From an uncultured virus (IMG/VR IMGVR_UViG_3300020046_005824) (Duplodnaviria; Heunggongvirae; Uroviricota; Caudoviricetes), in the IMG/VR virus record IMGVR_UViG_3300020046_005824: a DNA stretch of 64,000 bases. The stretch is one strand, 5' to 3'. A program made the translations under genes and the position numbers. The stretch's first letter is position 1. The number at the start of each line of letters is the position of its first letter. The notes beneath the pieces are model-generated. The model did no database searches. It was given only the letters and a program-made list of their open reading frames with translations, and was not told the origin of the DNA. Positions 1 to 15,139 of the stretch are shown here, one piece after another.

Positions 1-328
1 ATGCTGCGGGACTGCACTTGATGGTGGCGATGATGGCCTCGTGGTTCTCGAACGCCACAACGCCGCACTCGTCGTACTTGGTGCCCGGAGCGGACAGGCC
101 GACCATCGCGATGTGGCCGAGACCGGTGGTGACGTCCCACTCCTTGATGTTGTGGGCTTCGGTCAGGTGCGCCGGCCGGTCAGAGCCATCCTTACGGGCA
201 CCGGGCTCGACGGGGTGGTAGATGCCCAGAAAAATCCAGCCGTTCTGCAGGATGACGATGCGCTTGTCCGGCGTACCGTCGTCGGTGAACACGGTGGGGG
301 TGGTTTGCTTTGCACGTTTCGTGGCCAT
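1..328 (-). CDS. Conserved hypothetical phage protein, runs off the window end (MATKRAK...RIVILQNGWIFLG...TTGLGHIAMVG)
   Basis: Translated by hand (not in ORF track); AAGGAG RBS before ATG at 328; frame open to position 1. Confidence 0.7.
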   Translation of the reverse strand, partial: MATKRAKQTTPTVFTDDGTPDKRIVILQNGWIFLGIYHPVEPGARKDGSDRPAHLTEAHNIKEWDVTTGLGHIAMVGLSAPGTKYDECGVVAFENHEAIIATIKCSPAA

Positions 329-402
329 GAGAGACTCCTTGTGGTTATGATGCGCGACATGCGCATCGGGCGGGGCACGGCATGCCCCGCCCGATGGACA
401 CT

Positions 403-615
403 CTAGTCGAGGAAAAGGAACGCGTCAAATATGCGGGCGGCGCGCCGCTCCGATATCAGGGAACGTCCGACGCCGCGGCCGGAACTAAATCGCGGTTTCG
501 GACGGGTGTAATAGGCAGCGGCTAGCTCAAAGCCGTCGTGTATGTATATTCCTTCTATAGAATGCCACACGCGCCCGCGTACGACGACGGGGTTTAGATC
601 GGAGGGGATAATCAT
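403..615 (-). CDS. Small hypothetical protein, C-terminal tag array 1 (degenerate end FLFLD)
   Basis: ATGA-coupled to upstream ORF; last member of the array. Confidence 0.65.
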   Translation of the reverse strand: MIIPSDLNPVVVRGRVWHSIEGIYIHDGFELAAAYYTRPKPRFSSGRGVGRSLISERRAARIFDAFLFLD

Positions 616-815
616 TCTAATATCAGTAAGTCAGACAAAACCGTACCGCGGTTAAACGTGCATGCTTTGCCGTACACGGGCCATATAAGTATGTGGCGCA
701 TTGGATATACGGCGTAGTCAACTCGATTAAGTCGTCGCGTACCGAACGGACTTCTTTGCGCTCGTACGCGGGCAGCGCGCACTACCCTCTGCAAGTTAAA
801 ATTCTCGGCGATCAT
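612..815 (-). CDS. Small hypothetical protein, C-terminal tag array 1 (ends VLSDLLILE)
   Basis: ATGA overlaps at both ends; shared C-terminal motif. Confidence 0.75.
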   Translation of the reverse strand: MIAENFNLQRVVRAARVRAQRSPFGTRRLNRVDYAVYPMRHILIWPVYGKACTFNRGTVLSDLLILE

Positions 816-1024
816 TCTAGGAGCAGTAGAAAAGCCAGCGTGTCAAATTTATCCGTCGGGTGGCCATCGGTAATGGGTGCGACACCCGTGTACGCATACA
901 GCTCTATATACCCTGCAGACCACATGGCCAGAGCACGGCTAGAGGCGCGAAAGTATACGGTGTAATCCGGCCCGAAGCGCATAGCGGGCTCGCACGAACG
1001 CCCGAGAAGAATTGGACTGTTCAT
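812..1024 (-). CDS. Small hypothetical protein, C-terminal tag array 1 (ends TLAFLLLLE)
   Basis: ATGA overlaps; shared C-terminal motif. Confidence 0.75.
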   Translation of the reverse strand: MNSPILLGRSCEPAMRFGPDYTVYFRASSRALAMWSAGYIELYAYTGVAPITDGHPTDKFDTLAFLLLLE

Positions 1025-1230
1025 TCCAATAGTAAAAGTTGGACGAGAACGTCGTACGCTTCGGCGTCTCTGCCTGAATCACAGTAAAAATATTCCTGTT
1101 GCTGTGCTTCTGGATGTTGCTGTGCTTCTGGATTTGTGCTCCAGTTACGCGAATAATCCCAGAAGATACCTATTGGACCTAGATCGCAAGGATACCTATC
1201 TATCTTCGTCGGGTGTTGTTCGGGTGTCAT
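1021..1230 (-). CDS. Small hypothetical protein, C-terminal tag array 1 (ends VLVQLLLLE)
   Basis: ATGA overlaps; shared motif; internal 18-bp duplication. Confidence 0.75.
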   Translation of the reverse strand: MTPEQHPTKIDRYPCDLGPIGIFWDYSRNWSTNPEAQQHPEAQQQEYFYCDSGRDAEAYDVLVQLLLLE

Positions 1231-1457
1231 TCTAATAAAAGAAGTTCAGTCAACGGGTTCTCATACCGCCGGTCTATCCATACAGCGACGCCGCGCGCAC
1301 TGATAGTACGCGCCACTTTCCCAACAGGTTCAATTCCGATACGATACACGCGAGCGCCGCGCCCAACGTACCGACCTGTATTGCCCTTCATGGCAATAGC
1401 AACGCCACTCAATACAACCGTAGGTGCGATCCTCAGATGCCGGCGCTGGTAGGTCAC
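1227..1457 (-). CDS. Small hypothetical protein, C-terminal tag array 1 (ends PLTELLLLE)
   Basis: GTG start overlapping upstream stop (GTGA); shared motif. Confidence 0.7.
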   Translation of the reverse strand: MTYQRRHLRIAPTVVLSGVAIAMKGNTGRYVGRGARVYRIGIEPVGKVARTISARGVAVWIDRRYENPLTELLLLE

Positions 1458-1675
1458 ACGCCCGCCGGCCAAAGGTCATCGTGGAGCCCAGCGAAGACGG
1501 CGATGACGTGATAGTCCTCGGGCTCGGCGTCCTCGGCTGTAGAGACGATTTCAGTCCGCGCAGCATGTACTGCAGCGACAGGGTCCTCGGCGCGAACGTG
1601 CGTGCAGTAGGTGTCCTGCCCGAAATTGTCGGTGTCGTAGTCCGGGTAGAGGAGGATGACGGTGTAGAGTTTCAT
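1454..1675 (-). CDS. Hypothetical phage protein (MKLYTVILLYPDY...)
   Basis: ATGA coupling, GC-rich codon usage. Confidence 0.7.
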   Translation of the reverse strand: MKLYTVILLYPDYDTDNFGQDTYCTHVRAEDPVAAVHAARTEIVSTAEDAEPEDYHVIAVFAGLHDDLWPAGV

Positions 1676-1800
1676 TGGGCTTCCCTTGCAAGTTGACGTA
1701 GCTCGGCCGTCGCGCGGTGCAGGCACCGGGCTTCGGACCAGCCGGGGTGGGCGCGCTTGAGCGCGGCGATAAGCCGGCGGAGTTCAAACGGGGACGGCAT
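1672..1800 (-). CDS. Small hypothetical protein (MPSPFELRRL...)
   Basis: GGAG RBS; fills the gap between coupled ORFs. Confidence 0.55.
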   Translation of the reverse strand: MPSPFELRRLIAALKRAHPGWSEARCLHRATAELRQLAREAQ

Positions 1801-1801
1801 G

Positions 1802-1993
1802 TCATGCTCCCCACGCGAAGCCGGCGATGGCGAACGCAAACATGGCCAACGCAGCGAACAACGCCCCGCTGAAACCATACCCGAGCGCCGACCATAAGTC
1901 GTCACCGAGCATGCGGTCGAGCATCGAGATCAACGCTCCGATGCACATGAACGCGCAGAACACGCCGCCTGCGAGAGCTAGAGAAGGATTCAT
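1802..1993 (-). CDS. Small membrane protein, two predicted TM helices
   Basis: Two hydrophobic segments; GGAG RBS. Confidence 0.7.
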   Translation of the reverse strand: MNPSLALAGGVFCAFMCIGALISMLDRMLGDDLWSALGYGFSGALFAALAMFAFAIAGFAWGA

Positions 1994-1996
1994 GGT

Positions 1997-2542
1997 TCAC
2001 TCCGGTTGTATACGTTTCACCTGCGCGCAGATAGCGTCGGCCATCTCGTACGCGGTCTCTTCGATGTACTTGTCATCGCTGTCGTCGATACCCCACAGCG
2101 ACTCTTCGATGTTGTCGCTCTCGACGAGCTCACCGTCTTCCCCCACTTCCATCAGCGTTACGATGACGCCGATGTAGTGCCACTCGTCGTTCGCCCAGCT
2201 ACGTAAAAACTCGTAGTTACGCTGCACGGCAGCGTGCACGATCTGGCCGCGAGTCGGCGTGCGCCGCAGCTTTTTCGTCAGCTGCTCGGTCTCGTCTTCG
2301 GAAAGGCCCCAGCCGTCTCGCTTCGCGACGCGTGTCGACTCGGCCCAATCGTAGAACCGCTTGCTGCCACGATCTTGGCATAGCTCACGCTCTCCGGGCT
2401 TCTTGTCGCGGGTTGTCCATTCAGACACTTCGCCGTGACCACATTCCTCTTCCCATGGTGGGCCAGAGCTGTCGTCAAACTCGGTGCGGAAGCGAAACTT
2501 CAAGCCGCCGCGCTCGAAGATATCACCATCGTATAGGCTCAT
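1997..2542 (-). CDS. Conserved hypothetical phage protein (acidic)
   Basis: GGAGG RBS before MSLYDGD; long ORF. Confidence 0.75.
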   Translation of the reverse strand: MSLYDGDIFERGGLKFRFRTEFDDSSGPPWEEECGHGEVSEWTTRDKKPGERELCQDRGSKRFYDWAESTRVAKRDGWGLSEDETEQLTKKLRRTPTRGQIVHAAVQRNYEFLRSWANDEWHYIGVIVTLMEVGEDGELVESDNIEESLWGIDDSDDKYIEETAYEMADAICAQVKRIQPE

Positions 2543-2559
2543 ACTGCCCTCCAAATAGA

Positions 2560-2590
2560 GGGAGGTACATTACAGTGTAATGTACCTCCC
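2560..2590. promoter_or_regulatory. 21-bp palindromic operator-like site, copy 1 (within a perfect 15-bp-arm inverted repeat)
   Basis: GGGAGGTACATTACA-G-TGTAATGTACCTCCC, intergenic. Confidence 0.7.
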
Positions 2591-2595
2591 ATGAA

Positions 2596-3750
2596 TTACG
2601 CGCGAATGGTCCTGCCCCACGGCGCAACGACGTCTGTGGACATGACCCACAGGCTCGGGCAGCCGGGCTCCTTGCCCCAGTCGCCGATGTACCCGTCGGT
2701 GAAGGTCATCAAGAAGCTGGGCTTGATGCTGTGGTCGCGCAGGTACTTGAGCACCGGAGCGAACGACGTACCGCCGCCGCCCTTGGGCCGCGTCACCGTG
2801 AGCACGGTCTCGTCGGCGGTGTCGTAGACCTCGTGTGAGCGCACACCATCGTCCCAGTAGATGATGTGCAGCCGCTGCACCGAGAACGACCGCAGGATGT
2901 CACGCACGCCACCCAGCGCGGCCGCGAGCTCCTCGGGCGAGCCCCAGACCGAGCCGGACGTGTCCAGCGTGACCACAGGCTCCTCCAACGTCTCGCCGAC
3001 ACTGGACGGCAGGTACAGCCCTTGGTAGGCGAAGCGTCGGTTGGGGCGGCGCCACGTGGAGTTCTGGCCGGCCGCTGCGGCGGCGGAGACGAACTCCGCC
3101 AACAGGGTGTAGGTGTCATACGTCGGCTCTTTCAAGTCGTCGATGATCGCCTCCAGCGCGCCGGCGCCTGAGCCACTGATGCGCTGGCCCATGCGCATGG
3201 CCAGATCGACCGTGCGTTCGAGCTCCGCGCGTTCTTCCGGCGTCAGCTCGCGGTCGAACTCGTCGTGGTTGTCGATCGTGCCAGTTCCTTTCCCTCCACC
3301 GTTCTGCACGAGGTCGTCGAACACGCGCTGGACCGACCAGCCACGGTACTTGACATCGTGGCATGCGCCGGGTGGCAACGTGGCGACGCTGGTCGCTTGG
3401 TCGGACGCGACGATGGCGTCGTTCACCACAAAGTCCATCGCGATGTTGCACAGCTGCGGGTTGCGCTTGCGCAAGTGCTCCCACTGGGTAGTGTGGCGCA
3501 TCATGCGGTGCAGGCCCTCATGGGCCACAAGCCCTGCCAGCTGCTTGTTGTCGAGTCGCTCGACAAACGACGCCGCGTAGTACGTGTCCACCCCGTCGGT
3601 GTACGCCGTCTGCATCGGGCCGTTGAGCTTGTCGAGCACCTCGTTCTTGCCCATGATCAAAATGCCGCTCATCGCGGCGAACATGGGCGAGCCTTGGAGG
3701 CGAAGTATCGCCCCCTTGACTCGTCGTTGTTGCTTGTACACGTCAGTCAT
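2596..3750 (-). CDS. Metallopeptidase-like plus vWA domain protein (DUF2201-like), MoxR partner
   Basis: HExxH (AHEGLH); MIDAS DTSGS, GGGGTSF and FTDG motifs; adjacent to AAA+ gene. Confidence 0.85.
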   Translation of the reverse strand: MTDVYKQQRRVKGAILRLQGSPMFAAMSGILIMGKNEVLDKLNGPMQTAYTDGVDTYYAASFVERLDNKQLAGLVAHEGLHRMMRHTTQWEHLRKRNPQLCNIAMDFVVNDAIVASDQATSVATLPPGACHDVKYRGWSVQRVFDDLVQNGGGKGTGTIDNHDEFDRELTPEERAELERTVDLAMRMGQRISGSGAGALEAIIDDLKEPTYDTYTLLAEFVSAAAAAGQNSTWRRPNRRFAYQGLYLPSSVGETLEEPVVTLDTSGSVWGSPEELAAALGGVRDILRSFSVQRLHIIYWDDGVRSHEVYDTADETVLTVTRPKGGGGTSFAPVLKYLRDHSIKPSFLMTFTDGYIGDWGKEPGCPSLWVMSTDVVAPWGRTIRA

Positions 3751-3761
3751 GTCGTCCTCCT

Positions 3762-4838
3762 TCAGACGCCAGCGCTCAGGCGGGCAGAGTCCTTGAACAG
3801 GGTGGCCATGCTCTTGGTGCCCGTGACGGCGTTCACGTGGGCGCGGATGGCCAGCGTGGCGAACAGCGCGCCATGCTCCTCGGGCATGCGGGTGATGTAC
3901 TGCCCGAGCGCCTCCAGCTGCGGGGCCTTGAGGCTGCCGATGCGCGTCGCCGCAGTGACTGCGAACACCAGCCCGGCGATCGCATCCTCGGGCAGCTTGG
4001 CCTTGAGCGGGTTGGCCAGCACCTGCTCCATGGGGGTGAGGCGGTCAGCGACCGTGATCAACGACGCCATGTCCGCCGCAGCCTGCCGCCCGATGGTGCC
4101 AGCCAGCGCTGCGGAGAACGCCTCGTGGTCGCCGATGCTGGCGCGCTGCTTGACGATGTGGCCGGCCTTGTGCAGGGAGCGCGGGGTGACAAACGCCGTG
4201 TCCTTGCTGTCGGGCTTGTTGATGTACGGGTTGGACTTGGAAGTCTTGGGGTCGTAGTCTTCCAGCGTCGCGCCGATCTGCGTCACAAACGCGATGACCT
4301 CGGGCGCAACGTCGTTGGCGATCGCCCACTGCGTCCACTCGCTCGGCGTGGGCTTGCGCACAATGATCTCGGTCATCCGGTTGTAGCCGTGCTTGGGCAT
4401 GCGGTCGCCGACACCTTCACCCGCGAGGTTGCCGGTGCCGAACACCAGCGAGCCAGTGGGCAGCTTGTGCTCACCCAGCCGGCCTTCTTGCATCAGCGGG
4501 AGCAGCGCATTCATCACCGCCGGGGATGCCTTGGTCAGCTCGTCGAGCATGATCATCAGCGGCGCACCGTGCTGGAGGCCGAAGCGCGTGCTCGGGGCGA
4601 ACTGCGTCACCTTCACACCGTTGTGCTCGCCCATGAACGGCAGGAACAAGTCCTGCAGATCGGCCAGCGTGCAGTCCACGTACACCGGGATGTGGTTGGC
4701 GAACTCGGGGCGCTCCGCGAGCATGCTCAGGATCGACGACTTGCCGATGCCCATCTCACCACGCAGCATGTACGTGTTGGTCTGGCCGGTCAGGGCGATC
4801 AGGTTGGCGGCTTGGTTCAGGCTGAGTTTGGAGTCCAT
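3762..4838 (-). CDS. MoxR-like AAA+ ATPase
   Basis: Walker A GEMGIGKS, Walker B IMLDE, NALLPLMQEG; paired with vWA gene. Confidence 0.85.
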   Translation of the reverse strand: MDSKLSLNQAANLIALTGQTNTYMLRGEMGIGKSSILSMLAERPEFANHIPVYVDCTLADLQDLFLPFMGEHNGVKVTQFAPSTRFGLQHGAPLMIMLDELTKASPAVMNALLPLMQEGRLGEHKLPTGSLVFGTGNLAGEGVGDRMPKHGYNRMTEIIVRKPTPSEWTQWAIANDVAPEVIAFVTQIGATLEDYDPKTSKSNPYINKPDSKDTAFVTPRSLHKAGHIVKQRASIGDHEAFSAALAGTIGRQAAADMASLITVADRLTPMEQVLANPLKAKLPEDAIAGLVFAVTAATRIGSLKAPQLEALGQYITRMPEEHGALFATLAIRAHVNAVTGTKSMATLFKDSARLSAGV

Positions 4839-5083
4839 TACATTTCCTTCATTGCGTCGGGTTGTGAAACATCAGTGAGCCCTCGACGAGCAGGCTCATA
4901 GATGGATTGGATACCCTGCAGAATAGCCATCTGCTCGGGTGTGAAGTCACTGAAAACGAAGTCGCGCACGATGCAACGACCCAAGGGGGTTGACTTCCTA
5001 AGTTCAAAGGTCGGCAACGCGAAAAGAACCGCCGCGCATTCATCTTCAGTGAAATCGACGATCGTCCATTTATTGATTTTCAT
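4838..5083 (-). CDS. Small paralog family C member (EDECAAVLFALP...TPEQMAIL..IY)
   Basis: TAATG overlap with AAA+ start; similar to the next three ORFs. Confidence 0.7.
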   Translation of the reverse strand: MKINKWTIVDFTEDECAAVLFALPTFELRKSTPLGRCIVRDFVFSDFTPEQMAILQGIQSIYEPARRGLTDVSQPDAMKEM

Positions 5084-5273
5084 TGTATAGCCTCGCTACT
5101 GCGCACAAGATTTCTCTTTGTTCTTTGGTTAGCATCTGATAGGTCGGTAGCGTTAACCTATACCTGTAATTCATCTGCGTGGTCACATATACCAGCATAG
5201 GAACAGCCATCTGTATCGCCGCGGCTTCTTCGTCCGTGCTCACGTACACGGAGTACGCTCCGACTTCTATCAT
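5070..5273 (-). CDS. Small paralog family C member (MIEV...TDEEAAAIQMAVP...TKEQREIL..LY)
   Basis: ATGA coupling; paralogy. Confidence 0.75.
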   Translation of the reverse strand: MIEVGAYSVYVSTDEEAAAIQMAVPMLVYVTTQMNYRYRLTLPTYQMLTKEQREILCAVARLYNENQ

Positions 5274-5479
5274 TTGTAAATATCCTGCACACCGCACGCG
5301 ATGAGTATCTGCTGCGGGGTGAAATGCCACACGCCTGCTGGTGGGCGAAACAGATAAGTAAACCATGCCTTGCTTGCGCCCTTCAGGCGTTCCCGCTTCA
5401 AGCCGGGTATTGCCAGCTCCAGAGCCGCGGCTTCTTCGTCCGTGTCGCAGTATATGCAAATGTCGCTTACGGTTATCAT
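5270..5479 (-). CDS. Small paralog family C member (MITV...TDEEAAALELAIP...TPQQILI..IY)
   Basis: ATGA coupling; paralogy. Confidence 0.75.
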   Translation of the reverse strand: MITVSDICIYCDTDEEAAALELAIPGLKRERLKGASKAWFTYLFRPPAGVWHFTPQQILIACGVQDIYK

Positions 5480-5667
5480 TTGTACAACTCCGCTACCGCG
5501 CGGGCTCGCGCTTGTAACTCCGGGGGAATCCCGGTGCTCCCGGGCATCACGAATATGATGCCGGGCAAGTGTGGTAAGTATTCTTCAAGCTCTGGACACG
5601 CCATCCGTATCGCTTGCTTTTCTTCTTCAGAATCGCAAGCGACGCTGACATTGCTGACCTCAATCAT
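5476..5667 (-). CDS. Small paralog family C member (MIEV...SEEEKQAIRMACP...LY)
   Basis: ATGA coupling at 5664-5667; paralogy. Confidence 0.75.
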   Translation of the reverse strand: MIEVSNVSVACDSEEEKQAIRMACPELEEYLPHLPGIIFVMPGSTGIPPELQARARAVAELYK

Positions 5668-5843
5668 CCCGCCGACAGCTTGCGCTTGAGCGCCCGCAGC
5701 TCCGCAATGTAGGTGGGCTGTCGCACCTGCTGGCCGTGCGCCCGGGCAAGTGCCAGAGAGACGAGCAGACGCAGCGTAGCCCACTGCTCGGGTGTCAGTT
5801 CGCCGAATTCATCTGTGTCGGGTTCAATAAGTTCGATGTTCAT
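5664..5843 (-). CDS. 59-aa hypothetical protein (MNIELIEPD...LTPEQWATLRLL)
   Basis: Translated by hand; ATGA overlaps at both ends. Confidence 0.7.
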   Translation of the reverse strand: MNIELIEPDTDEFGELTPEQWATLRLLVSLALARAHGQQVRQPTYIAELRALKRKLSAG

Positions 5844-6091
5844 TTGAACTCCTTAAAGGTATAGCCGTACATGGAAAGAATTTTGCACGCCAGATCACGG
5901 CGTTCGACCGACCCAAAATAATAGGTAACCCAGCGCCTGTCTACGTCTATGTGCCTCGGTACGTCTATGTGCCTCGGGCTGGCACCTGCCATCTCGAGCG
6001 CGGCGAGATGTTCATCGGACAGAGGGATTGTGTCCCCCGTCTGCGTACAGATAGCTTCATCATACGATTTGAAAATTTCAAGCTTTCTCAT
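5840..6091 (-). CDS. Small paralog family D member (LSDEHLAALEMAG...ILSMYGY)
   Basis: Paralogy with the next three ORFs. Confidence 0.75.
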   Translation of the reverse strand: MRKLEIFKSYDEAICTQTGDTIPLSDEHLAALEMAGASPRHIDVPRHIDVDRRWVTYYFGSVERRDLACKILSMYGYTFKEFK

Positions 6092-6329
6092 TTTCTTCTA
6101 CCTTGAAATCGTACATGGAACAAAGAATGTTGATGGCTAGCCACATCTGATTCTGGTCGTGGAACACCCAGTAGCGTCCTATGTTGTGGCTCGACGGTAG
6201 CAGCTGGGTAATGGTGCACGCGCACCCGGCCATCTGCAGAGCGGCGGTCTGCTCATTGCTGAGGTTGGCGCAGTCCGGCGACCGAGTGAAGAACGCATCG
6301 ATAGATGGCATCGGGCAGAGAATCCTCAT
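6078..6329 (-). CDS. Small paralog family D member (LSNEQTAALQMAG...ILCSMYDF)
   Basis: Paralogy. Confidence 0.75.
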   Translation of the reverse strand: MRILCPMPSIDAFFTRSPDCANLSNEQTAALQMAGCACTITQLLPSSHNIGRYWVFHDQNQMWLAINILCSMYDFKVEENEKA

Positions 6330-6333
6330 ACTG

Positions 6334-6573
6334 TCACCTGATATCTTCTATGGTGTATCCGTACACAGACACGAGAATGTGCGCGGCGGTAGCAGCGGAC
6401 TCTCCATTCTTGAACCGAAAGGCGAGCCAATTGCCGGCGCTGTTGTTATGTAGATGTGTGCGCACAACAGGTACGCCGGCCATTTCGAGCGCCGTTAGCT
6501 GTTCATCTGGCAGTAGCGCGGTGTCGCCGGCCACGGTGAAAAGCGCTTTCGTGGCTAGTTCAAGTGTTCTCAT
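6334..6573 (-). CDS. Small paralog family D member (LPDEQLTALEMAG...ILVSVYGY)
   Basis: Paralogy; ATGA coupling. Confidence 0.75.
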   Translation of the reverse strand: MRTLELATKALFTVAGDTALLPDEQLTALEMAGVPVVRTHLHNNSAGNWLAFRFKNGESAATAAHILVSVYGYTIEDIR

Positions 6574-6791
6574 ATTTTACTGATTCGATACCCGTACAGG
6601 TCGCGGAGCAGCATGGCAACGGCGGGCGCGTCATCCACGGTGTACGTCCAATACGGAAATGAATTCGCCGGTGGCGACGAACGTGCTGAGTATCCCGCCA
6701 ACTCTAAAGCGGCCAAATGCACGGGGTCTAACTGCGCGGTGTCTCCATTCGTGGTGAAAATGGTGTACGTAGCGTACTCAATCGTTCTCAC
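6570..6791 (-). CDS. Small paralog family D member (LDPVHLAALELAG...LLRDLYGY)
   Basis: GTG start overlapping upstream stop; paralogy. Confidence 0.7.
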   Translation of the reverse strand: MRTIEYATYTIFTTNGDTAQLDPVHLAALELAGYSARSSPPANSFPYWTYTVDDAPAVAMLLRDLYGYRISKI

Positions 6792-7060
6792 TTCTTCCCC
6801 GCCTTGGCGTACACGTGGAAAGCCTTCGGGTCGAGGCCGCGATGCGTGGACTTGTCGGACTTGTCGGACAGCCCATACATGGTCCCCGTGTTGCGCCCCG
6901 TGTCGCTCTCCATGCGCTCGCGGGACGCTGTAGCAGCCGCGCCGGCGTTCGCCCGGAAGTACGGGTCGCGGGCGAACACGGTGGGCTCGCCGGTGTCCCA
7001 GTTGAAGCCCGTGTGCGTGGACTTGATGATGTTCGTACCGGGCCAGTAGATGACTTTCAT
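6788..7060 (-). CDS. Hypothetical phage protein (MKVIYWPGTNIIKS...)
   Basis: GC-rich codon usage; coupled on both sides; separates families D and B. Confidence 0.75.
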   Translation of the reverse strand: MKVIYWPGTNIIKSTHTGFNWDTGEPTVFARDPYFRANAGAAATASRERMESDTGRNTGTMYGLSDKSDKSTHRGLDPKAFHVYAKAGKK

Positions 7061-7278
7061 TTATATTCCTCAGGGTTAAAAATAGCGGATATCTGTTCAT
7101 GAGTGAGCCGTACTAGCCCGTCTAGTGCTCGCTCACCTACCATGCTAAAAACCGTCCACCCTAGCTCTGTGCAAGTAGACCTACTTAAATAAATATAGTC
7201 GTGCCCCAATGTACGCAGCGTGCTACGGCAAGCATTACACAGGCGGGGGACAATGAGCTCGTCTATTCGGTACATCAT
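7057..7278 (-). CDS. Small paralog family B member (MYRIDEL...TELGWTVFSMVG)
   Basis: Paralogy; ATGA coupling. Confidence 0.75.
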   Translation of the reverse strand: MMYRIDELIVPRLCNACRSTLRTLGHDYIYLSRSTCTELGWTVFSMVGERALDGLVRLTHEQISAIFNPEEYK

Positions 7279-7490
7279 TTTCTCCCGAGCAGGGCTCTCA
7301 GCTGCCCCACGGTGGGGTAGTAATACTCGTCGAAGTCATTCGACACGCCCATCATGTTGAACGCTGCTACGCACAGCGGTGTGAGTTGTGAGTCGTGTAG
7401 AGTTATACGCGCCGATGGACGTCGGCCTCTCAGGACGCGGAGCATCTTTGCTCGTTCACCCTCGACGAACAACTCTCGCTTCTTATACAC
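7275..7490 (-). CDS. Small paralog family B member (MYKKREL...TPLCVAAFNMMG)
   Basis: Paralogy. Confidence 0.7.
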   Translation of the reverse strand: MYKKRELFVEGERAKMLRVLRGRRPSARITLHDSQLTPLCVAAFNMMGVSNDFDEYYYPTVGQLRALLGRK

Positions 7491-7704
7491 GGTAACTCTC
7501 CGGGTTGAACAGGGCAGCGAATGCTTTTCCGTCTACCCTATTATCGTCAGTGATTCCGATCATCTGCAGGGCGGCCAGACCGAGGGGAGTAAAATCTTCG
7601 GGGTTTACTTGTACAGACCAATCGCACGTCTGTGCGAACTGTCGTAGCCATCGAAGCACATTATTTTCACGGTCCCGATCGAGCATTTCTTCAACTGTGA
7701 ACAT
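7483..7704 (-). CDS. Small paralog family B member (MFTVEEM...TPLGLAALQMIG)
   Basis: Paralogy. Confidence 0.75.
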   Translation of the reverse strand: MFTVEEMLDRDRENNVLRWLRQFAQTCDWSVQVNPEDFTPLGLAALQMIGITDDNRVDGKAFAALFNPESYRV

Positions 7705-7707
7705 GAT

Positions 7708-7728
7708 GTACGTTACACTGTAATATAC
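7708..7728. promoter_or_regulatory. 21-bp palindromic site, copy 2
   Basis: GTACGTTACACTGTAATATAC fills the intergenic gap. Confidence 0.7.
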
Positions 7729-7940
7729 TAATCGAAGAGGGCGGCCAAGGTTTCAGCGGAAATACGCTCGTCGACACGGCCGGCCATGTCTAGGACAGCG
7801 ATGCCTAACTCAGTAAGCGCGTAGTCTGGCATGGAGACTTCTTTAATTTGTGTGCGGAAATATCTTTTTTTCCACTCGCGCATACTGCCAGCCCACTTGC
7901 CGCACAATTCCTCCGCCGTGTACGGGGCTTGCTGTTTCAT
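7728..7940 (-). CDS. Small paralog family B member (YTAEEL...TELGIAVLDMAG)
   Basis: Paralogy. Confidence 0.75.
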   Translation of the reverse strand: MKQQAPYTAEELCGKWAGSMREWKKRYFRTQIKEVSMPDYALTELGIAVLDMAGRVDERISAETLAALFD

Positions 7941-8191
7941 ACCAGTTCTTCCGGTTCTGCGGCGAGAAGTTGGAGCTCGAGCTCGATGGATATCTTAATC
8001 CTACGCCCAGACGTGTCGACGCCCGCCATACCGAATACTGCCAGCCCGAGTGGGGTGAATATTTCCCGGCCGGCGTTGGTAATGCCTAACGATTTGACGC
8101 CCGTACGCACAGCTTTACGTTTCAGAGCCAACCACTCCCGTACGCCTGGCACATATTCTGGCACGTAGAGGTCTTCAACTTTGTACATCAC
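7937..8191 (-). CDS. Small paralog family B member (MYKVEDL...TPLGLAVFGMAG)
   Basis: Paralogy; ATGA coupling. Confidence 0.75.
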   Translation of the reverse strand: MMYKVEDLYVPEYVPGVREWLALKRKAVRTGVKSLGITNAGREIFTPLGLAVFGMAGVDTSGRRIKISIELELQLLAAEPEELV

Positions 8192-8436
8192 GGCTCCGCC
8201 GAAAGAAGCGATACTTGCACATGTGAGGGGAGTCTGATAGTAGGGCGACTGCTTATGCCTTCTACGGTTCCTCCCGCCATCGTGAAAACAGCCACGCCGA
8301 GCGGCGTGATGTTATTCACATAATCCGCCGTAGAGTCGCCGACGTCTGGGGGATGCGCCCTACGGACGCGAAGCCACCCACGGACATTCCTGCGAGCATC
8401 ATCCCGATCATTGAAAATTTCATCTACGGTGTACAC
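8188..8436 (-). CDS. Small paralog family B member (MYTVDEI...TPLGVAVFTMAG)
   Basis: Paralogy. Confidence 0.75.
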   Translation of the reverse strand: MYTVDEIFNDRDDARRNVRGWLRVRRAHPPDVGDSTADYVNNITPLGVAVFTMAGGTVEGISSRPTIRLPSHVQVSLLSAEP

Positions 8437-8669
8437 GGTTGATCCATCCCGTAGAGCGCCAATTCTGTTTTCATGGGTAGCTCGTACTCGTTATTCTCTT
8501 CGTCGTATTGTGCGCCGACCATTGAATACACGGCTTCGCCCAGCTCCGTTAGCGTATCTTTCGAAACTTGAACTATGGTATCCGGGCTAGTATGTTTCCT
8601 AGCGTCTTCGAACCATATCTTCACAGTTTTATGGTACCGGGGGAGAAACAGCTCTTCTATCGTGTACAT
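8424..8669 (-). CDS. Small paralog family B member (MYTIEEL...TELGEAVYSMVG)
   Basis: Paralogy. Confidence 0.75.
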   Translation of the reverse strand: MYTIEELFLPRYHKTVKIWFEDARKHTSPDTIVQVSKDTLTELGEAVYSMVGAQYDEENNEYELPMKTELALYGMDQPCTP

Positions 8670-8980
8670 ACGTGCCGTCCTTTACCGTCGACGCGTGGGA
8701 TGACGCCGCCTGATGGGCCAACGAAATACTGGCACCCTGTCAACTCGTCCGTGGACACCTTGAGCCCTGAGCGGGGGGAGAACCACTCCTGCTGGTCGGA
8801 GTTGTCGCGCCCCAGTGGGGAGGCGGACACGAGGTACAACGCCGCGGCGATGACGGCGCACAGCCGGCCTAGCCGGTTGGCGGCGATGCCCGCAGCGGCG
8901 AGGGCAGCGGCCATGATGGCCGACGCAGCCTCTTGCATGGTGGCGTCAGCCAGCTTGACGGGCTCGGGAGTGGGTTTCAT
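8657..8980 (-). CDS. Hypothetical membrane-anchored protein (RSGLKVSTDELTGCQYF...PRVD)
   Basis: AGGAG RBS; hydrophobic segment. Confidence 0.7.
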   Translation of the reverse strand: MKPTPEPVKLADATMQEAASAIMAAALAAAGIAANRLGRLCAVIAAALYLVSASPLGRDNSDQQEWFSPRSGLKVSTDELTGCQYFVGPSGGVIPRVDGKGRHVCTR

Positions 8981-8981
8981 T

Positions 8982-9176
8982 TCATTCTCCTACGAAGAAG
9001 TACACGCGGCCGACAACGATGGGCAGCCGAGTGCGTGAGGGCACAACGGAGCGGGTGATCTTCACCCACCCGTCGGGGATGTCCCGCGTGGGGACGTCGG
9101 GGGCAACGGCGGGGGGTGCCGTGTGCCGCACGAATGGCTTGGCCGTGGCCAGCTGATCACGGAGGGAGAGTTTCAT
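8982..9176 (-). CDS. Hypothetical protein (MKLSLRDQL...)
   Basis: Start chosen after GGGG leader; tight packing. Confidence 0.6.
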   Translation of the reverse strand: MKLSLRDQLATAKPFVRHTAPPAVAPDVPTRDIPDGWVKITRSVVPSRTRLPIVVGRVYFFVGE

Positions 9177-9178
9177 GA

Positions 9179-9355
9179 TTACCCCCTGAGCAGCGTGTGT
9201 ATGCTGCGGTTCAGTAAGTTGTACGCGAGACCCAGAACCCACATGCGCAGCCGCACCGGTGCGCCAATGGCGTGCAGAATCTCGCGGGCCTGCAGAATCT
9301 CACGCGCCAGCTTCAGGTAGAGGCGGACGCGGAACAGCCGGAAGATGGGGGTCAT
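9179..9355 (-). CDS. Hypothetical basic protein (MTPIFRLF...)
   Basis: ATGA coupling, GGAG RBS. Confidence 0.55.
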   Translation of the reverse strand: MTPIFRLFRVRLYLKLAREILQAREILHAIGAPVRLRMWVLGLAYNLLNRSIHTLLRG

Positions 9356-9651
9356 GCTGGTCTCCCCTGCGTGAACGCATCGAGCTGCGTCCGAAGATTC
9401 TTCACGTCGCTCTCCAGCGCGAACAGCCGGTCCGCAGTGTCGCCGGCCAGCTCGCTGACATCTTCGAGCTCTTCCATCGGGCGGCGACCGCTCTCCCGCC
9501 ACGCGTCGAGCAGCGCGCGCCGCTCGTCGACGTTGAGGCGGGCGTGGATGAGTTTGCCGTCGACGAGAACATTGCCGTAAGCAACGCTGCCGACAGCGGA
9601 CAGCTTGTCGAGGTCGATGACAGTGTCATCAGGTAAGGTATAGAGTCGCAC
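9352..9651 (-). CDS. Hypothetical protein with C-terminal coiled coil
   Basis: AGGAG RBS plus GTG start. Confidence 0.65.
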   Translation of the reverse strand: MRLYTLPDDTVIDLDKLSAVGSVAYGNVLVDGKLIHARLNVDERRALLDAWRESGRRPMEELEDVSELAGDTADRLFALESDVKNLRTQLDAFTQGRPA

Positions 9652-9694
9652 GGTATTGCTCCTATGAAACGCGCCCCGAAGGGCGCTGGGTTGA

Positions 9695-10072
9695 TCAGAA
9701 TTTCGGGATCGACGCGAGTGCGTCGGCCAGCGCCTGCTGCGCGTCGCCATCGGACAGCAGCAGCTTGTCTTCGAGGGCTTGGTAGGGCGCCGCCTCCGGC
9801 GCGTAGTGTTTGAGATCGCAGTGCGCGTAACCGAAATTTTTCGGTATCTGCACGCCGAGCCCCGCCGCCACTTGCAGAGACCCGCGGTCAATCGTGTCGT
9901 TGAGCTTGTCAATCTTGGCCGAGATAGCCCGCCGCTGGGCGGACAACTTCTCGCGTTCGGCGCGCAGCTTCTTGAGTTTCGGGTTGTCTTCCACCGCCCG
10001 CTCGATAACCGCCGCGTGCGCCGCTGTGAAGCGCTGCAGAATGTGCTCGCGCTGTTCTTTGCTGAGTTTCAT
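9695..10072 (-). CDS. Hypothetical coiled-coil protein (MKLSKEQREH...)
   Basis: AGGAG RBS; GC-rich codon usage. Confidence 0.75.
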   Translation of the reverse strand: MKLSKEQREHILQRFTAAHAAVIERAVEDNPKLKKLRAEREKLSAQRRAISAKIDKLNDTIDRGSLQVAAGLGVQIPKNFGYAHCDLKHYAPEAAPYQALEDKLLLSDGDAQQALADALASIPKF

Positions 10073-10095
10073 GATTACTCCTGTTTCAAGGTTAG

Positions 10096-10116
10096 GTATG
10101 TTACGTTGTAACATAC
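10096..10116. promoter_or_regulatory. 21-bp palindromic site, copy 3
   Basis: GTATGTTACGTTGTAACATAC upstream of RBS. Confidence 0.65.
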
Positions 10117-10429
10117 AGTGAGTGACACCCACTGTTATGGATACGCATGTCGCACCAGTTCTGCGAACGCACATATGCATAACACTGGGTGTAAGCCAGT
10201 GTGGGAGCGCCGGGTTTGTCCGGAACTCCCCTCGGCATACGTATGAAAGCGGGCATATAAGGTGTAGGGCCTCGCTGTATGTTGTGCGTGTGCGGTTGGT
10301 ACCGCAGTATCCTGTGGCGGGGTTAGCCGCATATATGCGCTCGGAAGCGCAGGGATAAGTCTCACATAGATACGCACGCGCCATACATATTCATGGTCGT
10401 ATGCTGCCCCTGCTGTGGACACATGCATC

Positions 10430-10815
10430 GCCCTCCACTAGGGAGGTACGTTGGATGATTCTTATGCCGCCTTGTGATTTGGCCCTGTGGGCTTTCTAGT
10501 CTTTCAACTAGAGTCGGTGGTCAGTCTGCTGTTACCGTTCGACGGTGGTGGGATTCGACAGTAGCTTCGCTTTTGGGGCGGTATCCAATTGCAAGTCCAC
10601 TCCGGTAGTGTTGCTTGCTTCACGCTGCGTATGTGTAATGCGACGGATACGTCAGGCTGTCTGTCTATCCCTATCTTGGACTGGCCGCGGGAAGAACCTA
10701 TGCATGCCGCTTGGCTAGGGGGATTCTTCAGCAGGTATATTACACTGTAATTTACCTGTCGAAGTGTCTGTTGGTTGTTAATGAACTCAGGCCAGTGAGA
10801 ACGATCTCTCACTGT
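10430..10815 (-). ncRNA. Candidate structured non-coding RNA or long 5' leader
   Basis: Begins just downstream of a consensus promoter; several hairpins including a GAAA tetraloop stem; no convincing ORF. Confidence 0.4.
10735..10755. promoter_or_regulatory. 21-bp palindromic site, copy 4
   Basis: GTATATTACACTGTAATTTAC, arms extend as CAG...CTG. Confidence 0.65.
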
Positions 10816-10823
10816 CTGAATAT

Positions 10824-10852
10824 ATTATACCACAGGTAGAGTAATTTGTCAA
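10824..10852 (-). promoter_or_regulatory. Consensus sigma70 promoter
   Basis: TTGACA-17 bp-TATAAT, perfect match on the minus strand. Confidence 0.85.
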
Positions 10853-10863
10853 GTTTCTGACAC

Positions 10864-11280
10864 TTAGAGCAAACCGCCGAGAAACCCTTTCTTTTTCTCT
10901 TTGAGCTTTGCTACATCGTTTACATATCTGGCTTGTATCTGCGCGTAATGATTATCCTCCGCCTCCTTCACCCTCCGCCAGTGTTCTTGCCGCTCGGCGC
11001 CGCTACTGATAGCCATACCCATGTAGGCGCGGGCATTGACATTGGCATGAGGGTCCGGTTTCACCTGCCGACGCGCGTCGAGACAGAAATCGAACTCGCA
11101 CTGGGCAGCGCGCAGGGACACGATCGCATCGGCCATGGCCGTCGGGGTGTCCGGCGGCAGCATGTCCTGCCGGCCGGCATTGATGCCGCCCTCCGTCCAG
11201 TTGAGCATCTTGAGCGCGGCGATGGCCACGAGGTCCGAGGTCGAGATGACGGCGTCGCCGATGTAGGTATGTGTGATCAT
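10864..11280 (-). CDS. Hypothetical protein (MITHTYIGDAVIST...)
   Basis: AGGAGTCTCTC-ATG leader, the same as before the ORF starting at 328. Confidence 0.7.
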   Translation of the reverse strand: MITHTYIGDAVISTSDLVAIAALKMLNWTEGGINAGRQDMLPPDTPTAMADAIVSLRAAQCEFDFCLDARRQVKPDPHANVNARAYMGMAISSGAERQEHWRRVKEAEDNHYAQIQARYVNDVAKLKEKKKGFLGGLL

Positions 11281-11341
11281 GAGAGACTCCTGTCGTGGGT
11301 GTGGTTGTGGGTGGTAAGGGTTGGCGTGTCCAGCGTTCATA

Positions 11342-11545
11342 TTATTCAATCAGTAGAAGTGAAAAAAGAACTGGTTCGACTGGGCGTTGTTTATGGTGGA
11401 TGTTGTGCCATTCAAACTTGAGCGCTAGCCCTCTAATACGCTGGCCCCTATATGTTGCGACAGCGTACGCAGAGCGAGAGTACACTAGGTGAGTACGCTT
11501 GGCCAAGCGAATGTATATCTTATCTGTGAACGCGGAGAATATCAT
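11342..11545 (-). CDS. Small hypothetical protein, C-terminal tag array 2 (ends VLFSLLLIE)
   Basis: Shared C-terminal motif; TAA stop. Confidence 0.7.
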   Translation of the reverse strand: MIFSAFTDKIYIRLAKRTHLVYSRSAYAVATYRGQRIRGLALKFEWHNIHHKQRPVEPVLFSLLLIE

Positions 11546-11548
11546 GTG

Positions 11549-11752
11549 TTACTCGATCAGCAAGAGCGAGACAAGGAGTGATGGCGGGTAGGGGCGTCCG
11601 GAAGTAAACGCGGCGTCGAGCAAAAGGTCCGGGCTCCTGTGCTGCAGGGACGTAGTCACACGCGAGCCCGAGCGCACGTTGTACATGGTGTTGTACCACC
11701 ACTCCAAATGAGCTACTCGGTGCGGGGCGCGGCGAGAGACGGATGCAATCAT
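11549..11752 (-). CDS. Small hypothetical protein, C-terminal tag array 2 (ends LLVSLLLIE)
   Basis: Shared motif; GAG-TAA end. Confidence 0.7.
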   Translation of the reverse strand: MIASVSRRAPHRVAHLEWWYNTMYNVRSGSRVTTSLQHRSPDLLLDAAFTSGRPYPPSLLVSLLLIE

Positions 11753-11907
11753 TCGATCAGCAGCAGTTGGGTGAGTACATTCTCGCGCAGCGTCATACCA
11801 TACATTTTACCGCCTACTCGGACTGCGCTGAAGTAGCCCCGTAGTACAGCAGAATACATCGAGAGAGCGCAAGCTGGGGAATAGCGATAACCGTTAAGTA
11901 GAGTCAT
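11749..11907 (-). CDS. 52-aa hypothetical protein, C-terminal tag array 2 (MTLLNGY...NVLTQLLLIE)
   Basis: Translated by hand; ATGA overlaps at both ends. Confidence 0.7.
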   Translation of the reverse strand: MTLLNGYRYSPACALSMYSAVLRGYFSAVRVGGKMYGMTLRENVLTQLLLIE

Positions 11908-12092
11908 TCAATCAGCAGAAGTTGGGTGAGTATATCTTCGATCGTCCAACTGTACGTGTAGCCTGTAGCGGCGTCTACTTGTACGTTACCCCATGGAATT
12001 GCGTGTGCGCGGTACATAGTCATAATATTGAGTACCCGCGGTCCGTCACCGCACCAACATTGAAACACGGTAGAGGGCGCGATAAACATCAT
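11904..12092 (-). CDS. Small hypothetical protein, C-terminal tag array 2 (ends ILTQLLLIE)
   Basis: ATGA overlaps; shared motif. Confidence 0.7.
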   Translation of the reverse strand: MMFIAPSTVFQCWCGDGPRVLNIMTMYRAHAIPWGNVQVDAATGYTYSWTIEDILTQLLLIE

Positions 12093-13699
12093 TCAAGCCC
12101 GAGCATGTAAGGCTGCTGCATGTGCACCGACGGGGGGGTGCCGGGCAGCGTGGGCAGGCCGGCATACACGGGCTTCATCCAAGCGTGCGAGGACCCCACG
12201 AGCTTGGCCCGAGCGACGGTGAACGGTATCTCGATGCGGGCATACAGCACACCGTCAAACACGTCGAGGACCATCTCGGGTGGGTGCTTCTCCCAGAGGG
12301 CCAACAGAGAGTTTGCGTCGCTGGCAGCGTCGGGTCGCCGATGCTGGTCTGTGTGGGCGGCGCGGACCGGCCGACCCGGGCGCACGGGCTGGCACAGGGC
12401 CGCCCAAAGAAAATACTCGGGGTGGATGATATTAACTGCGCCAGAGGGCAGCGGCAAGGGTGCAGGTTGTGCATACACCGGCAGTGAGGCGCTGTGCGCG
12501 AACGGGATCACGGGAGTGAATGTGGTGTGGCCAGCTGTCCACGAGCCCGGTACGTCGTACTTGTGCAAGTAGGGCAGGCGGCTCTCCATGGGTACAGTGT
12601 CGGGGCGGGTGGCACGGGCCGCGGCACGCACGGTGCGCCACATCTGGTCCACACCCTCGCGCCGACGGTTCACCTTCTGGACATCGGTGGGTACGCCGGT
12701 GGCGGCGCCCCCACCCCCACCCTTCTGCGGGCGAGGAACTGGTGCGGCACGAGAGATGCGCGTGTCGGACGGGGTCGTGCGCGGCTGGGCTGCAGCAGGG
12801 GGCAGCAGGGCCGACATCTGGGTCATCGCCTCAAACATGAGCATGGGGGTCGCCGGCCCGAAGTAGGGGAGATAGAACGTGTGCGGCGTCGGCTGGTTGA
12901 GGGCGGATGTGGGGGTGTAGTGCACCCAGCGGGAATGTATGGCCGGGGTGGATGTGCGCAGGCTGTCGAACGGCGTGAGCAGCACGTCGCAGACGGGCCG
13001 GTGCGGGTCGAGCTCGTCCGTGGTCGGAGGCAGGCGGGAGCCGATCAGGGCGCACTGCTGCAGCGTCGAGTGCACGAGAGGCAGCCGCACAGGGGTGGGC
13101 GACGCTGCAACGGTGGAAGTCTGATGGTACGAGCCCCACGGAAACAGGTTGAGCTTCAGGTGGGTGAGCTTGAGAGCGGCGAACGGCTCACCGGTGGGCA
13201 GCGGCACACTGACCTTGACCCGGCCGTGAGGCATGCGCGAGCCGAGCGAGAGCCCCGGGAACTCCACAGGGTAGGCGAGTGGGGTGGGGGTGGCGGGTGA
13301 GGCAGCGAGCGAGAGGGGGATCGGGACATTGATCGGCAGGGCCGCGAGGGCGGCATGCTCAGGGGAGTCGACGGGGAACGTAGGCAGCGCGCAGTTGAGC
13401 CCGAGACGGTAGAAGCCGGGCTGGTCGAGCGAGGGGTCGAGCTCGGGGGAGTCGGCTGGGTTGATGTAGGCCGGGGGGGTAGGCGCAGAAGGGATACGCG
13501 CTGTATGTTCTGCTGGCAGCATCGATTCGCCGATGCTGCTGACGGCATCGGTGGAAGGGGGTGTGGGTTCGATGGGGGTCGATTCGGCGAGGCTGATGCC
13601 GGCTTCGGCAGTGTATTCAGGCGTGCAGGCTTCGGCAGTGTATTCAGGCGTGCAGGCTTCGGCACGGGGGATTTCGGCGGGGGTTTCAGTGTGATTCAT
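12089..13699 (-). CDS. Pro/Thr/Ala-rich 536-aa hypothetical protein
   Basis: Long ORF coupled to array 2; 27-bp tandem repeat near N-terminus; ends MLGLE. Confidence 0.65.
   Translation of the reverse strand: MNHTETPAEIPRAEACTPEYTAEACTPEYTAEAGISLAESTPIEPTPPSTDAVSSIGESMLPAEHTARIPSAPTPPAYINPADSPELDPSLDQPGFYRLGLNCALPTFPVDSPEHAALAALPINVPIPLSLAASPATPTPLAYPVEFPGLSLGSRMPHGRVKVSVPLPTGEPFAALKLTHLKLNLFPWGSYHQTSTVAASPTPVRLPLVHSTLQQCALIGSRLPPTTDELDPHRPVCDVLLTPFDSLRTSTPAIHSRWVHYTPTSALNQPTPHTFYLPYFGPATPMLMFEAMTQMSALLPPAAAQPRTTPSDTRISRAAPVPRPQKGGGGGAATGVPTDVQKVNRRREGVDQMWRTVRAAARATRPDTVPMESRLPYLHKYDVPGSWTAGHTTFTPVIPFAHSASLPVYAQPAPLPLPSGAVNIIHPEYFLWAALCQPVRPGRPVRAAHTDQHRRPDAASDANSLLALWEKHPPEMVLDVFDGVLYARIEIPFTVARAKLVGSSHAWMKPVYAGLPTLPGTPPSVHMQQPYMLGLE
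13601..13664. repeat. 27-bp tandem repeat x2.4 (AEACTPEYT)
   Basis: GGCTTCGGCAGTGTATTCAGGCGTGCA repeated exactly. Confidence 0.9.
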
Positions 13700-13736
13700 G
13701 GGGCGGCCTTCAGGGGGATTGCGGACATGTGAGGGA

Positions 13737-13757
13737 GTATATTACAGCGTAACATAC
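13737..13757. promoter_or_regulatory. 21-bp palindromic site, copy 5, overlapping a possible minus-strand promoter (TTGCGC-17-TAATAT)
   Basis: GTATATTACAGCGTAACATAC. Confidence 0.65.
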
Positions 13758-13805
13758 CGGGGCGCAAGGGGAATGTTTGGATTTGTTAGGTTCGTGGGGG
13801 TTCGG

Positions 13806-13933
13806 CATGTGGGATAATTAGGGGTGGGGAAAGGGAACATGTGGGATTATTTGGGGGAAAATGGGGGTGGAGGGGAGGGGGACATGTGGGATAATTAGGG
13901 TAAAAAGGGGTCGCTATAATTCATAATTAGGGG
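13806..13933. repeat. Direct repeats CATGTGGGATAATTAGGG (3 copies, one degenerate, plus a partial) in a G-run tract
   Basis: Copies start at 13806, 13838 and 13883. Confidence 0.75.
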
Positions 13934-14334
13934 TAAAAAAGTTGAGTTAGAAATTTAACACAGAAAAAACGAGTTCGTAGGATGGCGTGTCGGCGATTAA
14001 ATAACGTGCACTAGGGTGAGGAAACTCAGAAAAAAACTCGTGGATATGTCGATGTAATTATCTCATATAGAGGGGGTAATTACCTCATATAAGGGTGTGT
14101 TATCGTCGTATACGGTGTGTGAAAATAAGTCGTGTTTTTCTCATTTTCGTAGACCGTATACGGCTATAGTGATATTCACTGCAGGTAGCCGGAAAAAGAA
14201 TAGCGAGTAGTTTTTTTCGCCCCCGTACGAAAACCCTATAACCTAGTCAACAATAGGGGTATTCGATTTTAGTTCCCGAATAAAGGGAGCGATATGGCGG
14301 GAATTAGCTATGGACCCACGCCCCCTACGATTTT

Positions 14335-14455
14335 ACAGTTTCCTTCGTTTTCTATATATTATTTATTTATCTATTCTTATCCTTATTATATGTAATAAAT
14401 AAATAAATATAAATAAAATAAAGAAAATAAAGAAGAAAAAAATAAATCATATAGT
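14335..14455. other. Very AT-rich tract with (TAAA)n-like runs
   Basis: Almost only A/T in a GC-rich genome. Confidence 0.85.
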
Positions 14456-14613
14456 TGGGAAACTAGCTCATATAATCCCTCGCGCTGGCGCGCGTTTCGG
14501 CGTGCCGGACCCCGCGAGTGGGCTCCACGTATGCGGGAGTTGCCCATTACGCCCAGTAATGTATGACGCCATAAAATACTATCCCCCACCGTTGGAGTAT
14601 GATATTCCTGCTA

Positions 14614-14634
14614 GTATGTTACAGTGTAATATAC
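14614..14634. promoter_or_regulatory. 21-bp palindromic site, copy 6
   Basis: GTATGTTACAGTGTAATATAC. Confidence 0.7.
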
Positions 14635-14798: not shown

Positions 14799-14804
14799 GA
14801 TGGG

Positions 14805-15132: not shown

Positions 15133-15139
15133 CTTGAGG

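Follow-up and report, generated by a model that had tools for sequence, protein, structure and literature searches.

A shared, acid-tipped hydrophobic C-terminal tail on nine dissimilar microproteins of a wastewater phage, and a candidate reader

Why would a phage encode a series of small proteins that resemble one another only at their C-terminal ends, and what might read those ends? The question is raised by the window, as we call the whole 64,000-nucleotide stretch of DNA that was analysed, which is nearly the whole genome of an uncultured wastewater phage, the contig that encodes its proteins being 64,118 bp long. Besides a terminase and a portal, the window has a family A DNA polymerase and a helicase region of the SNF2 type, both of which were named from sequence and homologues. 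Judged by the polymerase, the closest cultured phages are Rhizobium phage RHph_TM3_14A (34%) and Pseudomonas phages Rollin and KPP25 (both 32%). The terminase large subunit gene (17087-19783, plus strand) carries an intein and a LAGLIDADG domain, and a single tRNA gene (27327-27400, minus strand) is the sole Rfam match in the window.

The original prediction described five coupled minus-strand ORFs with such ends, and all five are present as claimed. They make up array 1 (403-1457) and are linked by 4-base stop/start overlaps. ORF a (1227-1457, 76 aa) has a GTG start and ends ..ENPLTELLLLE; ORF b (1021-1230, 69 aa), which is acidic (net charge -8) and has an 18-nt tandem repeat inside, ends ..YDVLVQLLLLE; ORF c (812-1024, 70 aa) ends ..FDTLAFLLLLE and ORF d (612-815, 67 aa) ends ..TVLSDLLILE. 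ORF e (403-615, 70 aa) is the last gene of the array, no gene overlaps its end, and its tail is degenerate, ..IFDAFLFLD. Four more minus-strand ORFs of 62, 52, 67 and 67 aa, for which alleles are also known, form array 2 (11342-12092), and their ends are ..LTQLLLIE (twice), ..LVSLLLIE and ..LFSLLLIE. Thus, there are nine ORFs of 52-76 aa in two arrays, and the end of each is L-x-x-L-L-[LI]-[LI]-E or differs from it conservatively. An in-register alignment of the tails gives the pattern [DEN]-x-L-x-x-L-L-[LI]-[LI]-E. With G+C contents of 0.53 (array 1) and 0.52 (array 2), compared to 0.61 in the window and 0.63 in the structural block, the array genes are indeed richer in AT than the core.

Array 2 is coupled to a proline-rich orphan ORF of 536 aa (12089-13699, minus strand), whose end, ..YMLGLE, matches the tail in part. 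It has no match in Pfam, PHROG or NCBIfam. A 9-aa repeat is present at its N-terminus, and before the ORF lies non-coding DNA of low G+C that contains repeats (about 13800-14480).

The tail is a real and statistically clear feature of this genome. Only 10 of the 2925 stop-ended frames in the window end in three hydrophobic residues followed by E or D; five of these belong to array 1, four to array 2, and the last is a plus-strand frame of 19 codons. Four hydrophobic residues plus E or D end nine frames in the window. In 200 block shuffles, such ends occurred 0 times in 135, once in 52, twice in 10, three times in two and four times in one, which is a mean of about 0.4. The last residue is E or D in all nine tails.

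The conservation is in the peptide and not in the DNA, as had been proposed from the Leu codons of array 1, which were quoted correctly. The last five positions of the nine tails contain 29 Leu codons, and all six Leu codons occur among them. When tail codons are compared pairwise, 129 of the 180 pairs specify the same residue and only 43 use the same codon. Strain alleles give the same picture. Among 21 alleles representing eight of the nine ORFs, 4 of 80 tail positions are variable compared to 83 of 443 body positions (P=0.0016), a contrast that is inflated to some extent, because some alleles were found with a tail-weighted profile, which biases part of the set toward intact tails, and because some of the body differences are possibly start-site calls. 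The tail varies by four substitutions, namely T to A, I to V, L to F and, in one sequence, L to P. For example, the last 11 aa are unchanged in alleles P0148 and P0150 of ORF a, and allele P0158 of ORF d has two changes in the tail, of which one is the I to V; alleles are also known for ORF c (P0154 and P0156) and ORF e (P0129 and P0130).

One could still ask if the tail is a by-product of a signal in the mRNA, that is, a U-rich unstructured stretch that allows re-initiation at overlapping starts lacking a Shine-Dalgarno sequence. Six of the nine tails do end at a stop/start overlap of the GAATGA or GATGA type, with no Shine-Dalgarno match at any of the six junctions; moreover, the most degenerate tail, at 403, is the one that has no gene close behind it, and the 536-aa ORF that is coupled to array 2 ends in LGLE. 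However, third codon positions are free and include CTG and CTC, and the tail is present at only six of the 40 4-base overlaps that are predicted in the window. The junction leading into array 1, where the start of ORF a overlaps the stop of a 73-aa ORF (1675-1454), has no tail. Furthermore, the three tails without a start-codon overlap keep both the peptide pattern and the final acid (GAG TAA, GAA TAA and GAC TAG). Free codon use, together with tails that lack the overlap and overlaps that lack the tail, means that neither a DNA repeat nor translational coupling explains the tail well, and we consider an mRNA signal improbable. A tail produced by an embedded ribosome-binding site or by a repeat in the DNA was rejected because the six junctions have no Shine-Dalgarno match and the codons are not fixed.

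It is more improbable still that the nine ORFs are untranslated or decaying. They match no family, and several have a low GC3, as might be expected of such frames. On the other hand, the 4-base overlaps are exact, and the frames and tails are kept over the 21 strain alleles, including those with in-frame indels. An independent contig, from run X18, has an in-frame deletion of 18 nt within ORF b. In another contig (depth 7.4), 358 nt between 1390 and 1031 are missing, possibly as an assembly artefact; by arithmetic, this gap would bring the start of ORF a into frame with ORF c and leave a shorter array that is still tail-ended.

None of the nine proteins matched a family in Pfam, PHROG or NCBIfam at E<=0.01, a search that ORF a entered with a longer TTG start, and none did so at E<=0.05. 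A profile search of 258 candidates returned 14 hits, all of them strain alleles, and a search of 1.84 billion representatives returned 10, of which eight were alleles and two were long proteins. In the ESM Atlas, ORF c and the array 2 ORF at 11749-11907 had no usable match, only unnamed clusters at 0.80 or less. An AlphaFold2 model of ORF a built from three sequences had a pLDDT of 34 and was unusable. Therefore, the view that this is not a described family holds for these databases, the hits being strain alleles apart from the two long proteins.

Whether the bodies are truly unrelated is a finer point. Only two of the 36 body pairs reach p<0.1 and none reaches p<0.05, which agrees with the original prediction of no similarity except at the ends. 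However, the nine bodies aligned jointly score 18.8 compared to 9.6 +/- 5.2 for shuffled sequences, a value equalled by only two of 40 shuffles, and to that extent the prediction is not fully borne out. This brings up the first serious alternative, that the nine genes are one very old and fast-evolving paralogue family, in which the tail would be a core helix of a small beta-rich fold or a homo-oligomerisation helix with no outside reader. The uniform ORF lengths would fit, as would two array 2 tails that are 86% identical in DNA over 37 nt. In addition, the same region holds three true paralogue arrays, and many of the tagged proteins of relatives, described below, have bodies that look similar by eye. 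Several observations speak against it: no body pair is significant, net charge ranges from -8 to +8, and the joint signal is much weaker than those of the three neighbouring arrays, whose scores were each reached in none of 40 shuffles. An acidic residue that is exactly terminal in nine of nine proteins would also fit a recognition end better than a core helix. We regard a single old family as unlikely.

The three paralogue arrays just mentioned are on the minus strand at 4838-5667 (four genes), 5840-6791 (four) and 7057-8669 (seven), upstream of an ATPase gene. Many of their proteins share an internal helix of the AALEMAG type, which resembles the AMLLG motif of Rhizobium phage RHph_TM3_14A.

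That ATPase is encoded near array 1. The MoxR-type AAA+ ATPase (3762-4838, minus strand, 358 aa) is like gp24 of phage N4, as indicated by Pfam AAA_5, phrog_1297 and tblastn matches to N4-like phages, and its Walker A and B motifs, at residues 27 and 95, are intact. It is followed by a gp25-like protein of 384 aa (2596-3750, minus strand) that combines DUF2201_N (PF13203) and DUF2201 (PF09967), a metallopeptidase joined to a vWA domain. Its HExxH motif (H77, E78, H81) and its MIDAS residues (D263, S265, S267, T328, D352) are invariant in 60 homologues; its model has a pLDDT of 78.8 and gives weak matches to vWA/MIDAS folds (best E 9e-4). The nearby AAA+/vWA pair suggested as a partner at the outset is, therefore, intact. 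The two proteins are 22-29% identical to N4-like gp24/gp25 homologues, and searches for the locus with the ATPase or the vWA protein singly gave no matches. PHROG (phrog_1314) and several phage records call the gp25-like protein an 'HNH endonuclease'; by Pfam and by its model, it is DUF2201_N plus vWA.

The pair lies 1.1 kb upstream of array 1 and array 2 is 6.5 kb away, so neither array directly adjoins it. The immediate neighbours of the pair are the four paralogous small proteins at 4838-5667, just before the ATPase gene, and these have another end helix (e.g., ..LTKEQREILCAV..); one of them scores 12 bits on a tag profile of the relatives. A complex prediction for the ATPase with the last 32 residues of ORF a scored 0.00 in two runs for which controls were not folded.

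Arrays and pair may nevertheless be expressed together. A 21-bp palindrome (2565-2585, repeat family D1) is found upstream of the operon with array 1 at its end, and six further copies are at 7708, 10096, 10735, 13737, 14614 and 16277. All seven matches fall within 2565-16297, the early region, and none was found in 100 shuffles. Copies head the array 1 operon, the gene run that ends in the pair and, at 13737, the 536-aa ORF with array 2. The palindrome is a candidate operator for a phage regulator that could co-regulate the arrays and the pair. The early region has other elements as well. A perfect match to a sigma-70 promoter (12/12, with TG; 10824-10852, minus strand) lies about 70 bp upstream of one palindrome, and a 55-nt repeat, consisting of a hairpin and a gene start, is found at 15078-15132 and 15440-15494 before two genes whose products start MAKNK; the product of the gene at 16149 starts MAKK.

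How widely is the tail distributed? Database searches returned the exact LLLLE tail from no source other than strains of the phage in the window. At least half of the words of 300-5000 are present in sequencing runs that amount to 18 rows from seven studies, mostly of wastewater, among which no RNA runs are listed, and contigs from four runs in four studies span most of array 1. Beyond these strains, blastn of 300-8200 against phages gave a sole match of 159 nt, to Xylella phage Sano, and the nearest record, a 42.6-kb fragment (G001), has nothing that matches positions 1-16400 of the window. A search of viral contigs for the tandem-tail DNA pattern returned eight stretches, none with an array.

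More distant relatives were collected as 160 loci around ATPases of 39-47% identity, in which the polymerases, where present, are 34-41% identical; a vWA gene is present in 128 of 165 entries, many of the loci being short. An LLLLE tail array occurs in none of the 160 and in none of 88 further loci. Other tails are present, however. Helices of the LTxxEAxAxxKL or ITKEVADIM type are at the ends of 53 small proteins, which come from 35 loci and have bodies of 41 families, as found with profiles whose seed motifs were chosen by eye from genes near the pair; a third profile, with IDPAFDVLL seeds, drifted to unrelated families and is excluded from all counts. Within two genes of the pair are 37 of the 53 tagged proteins compared to 342 of 1724 small ORFs overall, and after removal of the nine seed families the figures are 25 of 32 tagged families compared to 119 of 463. 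A pattern that needs no seed, hydrophobic-x-x-hydrophobic-hydrophobic in the last 16 aa, is enriched about twofold near the pair (35 of 117 families vs 59 of 340, P=0.005), whereas the same pattern in mid-protein is not (21 of 117 vs 56 of 340, P=0.77). Thus, unrelated small proteins with common C-terminal helices do cluster beside the pair in relatives. None of 44 tagged proteins of the relatives reached the cut-off against Pfam.

For the predicted co-occurrence of tail and pair, the outcome is mixed: other tails are enriched beside the pair in part of the relatives, and LLLLE itself forms no array in these loci. None of the nine tails of the window reaches even 8 bits on the tag profiles of the relatives, so the link between the two is one of analogy. 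The tags are also patchy and clade-restricted, which counts against the pair as the reader, as does the different helix on the four genes that adjoin the pair in the window. In a quick ATPase tree, from which loci with a short ATPase or with less than 4 kb downstream were left out, tags are found in 34 of 93 distinct rows and are clustered by clade, one clade of 34 rows having only two; the ATPase of the window is on a long branch. The profiles scored none of 250 small ORFs in 10 hold-out loci that have the pair and were chosen by polymerase. It should also be remembered that short hydrophobic C-terminal helices are common.

Hundreds of cultured phages have the gp24/gp25-like pair (450 and 553 records, respectively). 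In 10 of the 14 cultured phage regions with the pair that were inspected, no common tail was obvious by eye. Clear shared motifs are present in two phages. In Vibrio phage 1.026.O, 10 of 31 small proteins end hydrophobic-x-x-hydrophobic-[LM]-E compared to 16 of 1724 in the background, a pattern that was defined after viewing the sequences. The 12 of its tagged proteins that were checked have no body similarity, and many of them flank the gp25-like gene. GGAG is present within seven of these 12 tails, so their LE is partly a ribosome-binding site. In RHph_TM3_14A (L171, 21650-25026), an AMLLG-type motif is present in nine of 19 small ORFs, near the N-terminus, and the proteins are encoded just upstream of the ATPase and metallopeptidase-vWA genes. 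By eye, three small proteins in a row in LIT1 have hydrophobic tails that look alike, and VBP47 has a few shared motifs. KPP25, which is complete and is without the pair, has no shared tail by eye or by profile, although this is one case. In Vibrio phage D281 (L271, 1569-4660), a run of small Cys-rich proteins with CxxCxxC-like motifs lies upstream of the pair, again by eye.

What, then, might read the tail? An exactly terminal, acid-tipped hydrophobic motif on unrelated bodies would most simply imply one reader. We favour the pair, beside which analogous tails cluster in relatives; moreover, a MIDAS site takes the sixth ligand of its metal from the target protein (PMC13036017 and PMC7159879, accessible text). 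We would put the prospects as evenly balanced that the nine tails are a docking helix for the MoxR ATPase/metallopeptidase-vWA machine of the phage itself. The nine ORFs would then be real, fast-evolving early phage proteins, each consisting of a body of 40-65 aa that is specific to the lineage, followed by a short hydrophobic C-terminal helix that docks on one partner. Either they would be adaptors, in which the tail brings different host or phage proteins to the machine for unfolding or cleavage, or they would be clients that the machine loads or removes. The terminal Glu or Asp could plausibly supply the MIDAS metal of the vWA domain with its sixth ligand, and it would also stop the hydrophobic tail from acting as a host degron. 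A variable body with a constant docking peptide for one partner, as originally proposed, thus stands with regard to the peptide conservation, the lack of a match to known families, the intact pair and the shared C-terminal helices on small proteins beside the pair in relatives; the pair as the partner, and a role as adaptor, client or effector, are putative.

The same peptide-level evidence would apply equally to another reader, either a host factor (a chaperone, a protease, RNA polymerase or a membrane complex) or some other phage protein. The arrays, as noted above, do not adjoin the pair, which has an adjoining family of its own with another helix. In addition, the pair is near-universal in the family, so its presence says little: it is in 10 of 15 polymerase-chosen records and in both complete ones, the five records without it being 43-77% complete. 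Against this, the analogous tails of relatives lie mostly within two genes of the pair. C-terminal degrons, such as ssrA and the substrates of tail-specific proteases, are likewise short hydrophobic peptides on unrelated proteins, but they end in non-polar residues, and the acidic last residue in nine of nine tails weakens the host-protease option. A degron of the ssrA/Tsp type was rejected for this reason. In Mycoplasma, proteins whose last residue is charged are degraded more slowly than those that end in a hydrophobic one (PMC7246954, accessible text), which also argues against a simple host degron. The highest 19-residue Kyte-Doolittle mean is 0.32-1.11 across the microproteins, so that no transmembrane anchor is indicated; the hydrophobic stretch is too short for a tail-anchored membrane protein, and this candidate was rejected. 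LLE is also the type of site cut by prohead proteases; here the E is terminal, and a processing site was rejected. We consider a reader other than the pair to be rather unlikely.

Returning to docking on the pair, a hitherto undescribed tagging scheme probably recurs around phage MoxR/vWA-peptidase pairs, and the tail would be one of its dialects. A larger scheme is tentative and, in our opinion, somewhat doubtful: a modular system for targeted proteolysis or remodelling, with a core of MoxR ATPase and MIDAS-vWA/zinc-peptidase and an expandable library of microprotein adaptors, that would recur in N4-like and other tailed phages with clade-specific tail dialects. In such a system, the variable body would select a host target, e.g., a defence protein, and the acid-tipped helix would plug into the core. 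If the tails do address small proteins to the pair, many orphan early genes would gain a common logic, and the role of the pair would become testable with one peptide fusion.

A search of titles and abstracts, with subscription papers mostly outside it, found no report of tail-tagged small proteins with a MoxR/vWA pair, and the literature examined contains no experimental function for the gp25 of such pairs. The two-gene architecture itself is known. A MoxR ATPase with a vWA domain fused to an N-terminal metallopeptidase is present in group 2.2 jumbo phages and as gp24/gp25 of N4, and a role in virion assembly or processing has been proposed for it (Iyer et al. 2021, PMC7824862, accessible text). 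In the accessible text of Chan et al. 2014 (PMC4193335), gp24/gp25 are among the N4 middle genes and are near the second structural module in roseophages. In contrast, the pair in the window sits in the early region amid motif-sharing arrays of small proteins, and tagged small proteins are not mentioned in the accessible text of either paper. NorQ/NorD and other MoxR-vWA chaperones also combine a MoxR ring with a vWA partner whose MIDAS binds targets by way of a metal ligand, and the C-terminus of NorD docks on NorQ (PMC13036017 and PMC7159879, accessible text). However, NorQ/NorD serves one fixed client, and the accessible descriptions include neither a metallopeptidase domain nor a library of small tagged proteins.

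The design predicted for the microproteins is that of adaptors for AAA+ proteases, in which a substrate-binding body carries a short element that docks on the ATPase. SspB, for example, is a tethering adaptor of ClpX, and ClpS serves ClpA in the same way. A phage-encoded ClpS is mentioned in the accessible text of PMC7824862. The nine ORFs have the conserved short element on a variable body that marks this type of adaptor, the docking being predicted. SspB and ClpS are single conserved adaptors for host Clp proteases, whereas here there are nine unrelated bodies and presumably a machine of the phage itself, and there is no relation in sequence. An adaptor library, if true, would place in a bacterial virus the substrate-receptor design known from ubiquitin ligases.
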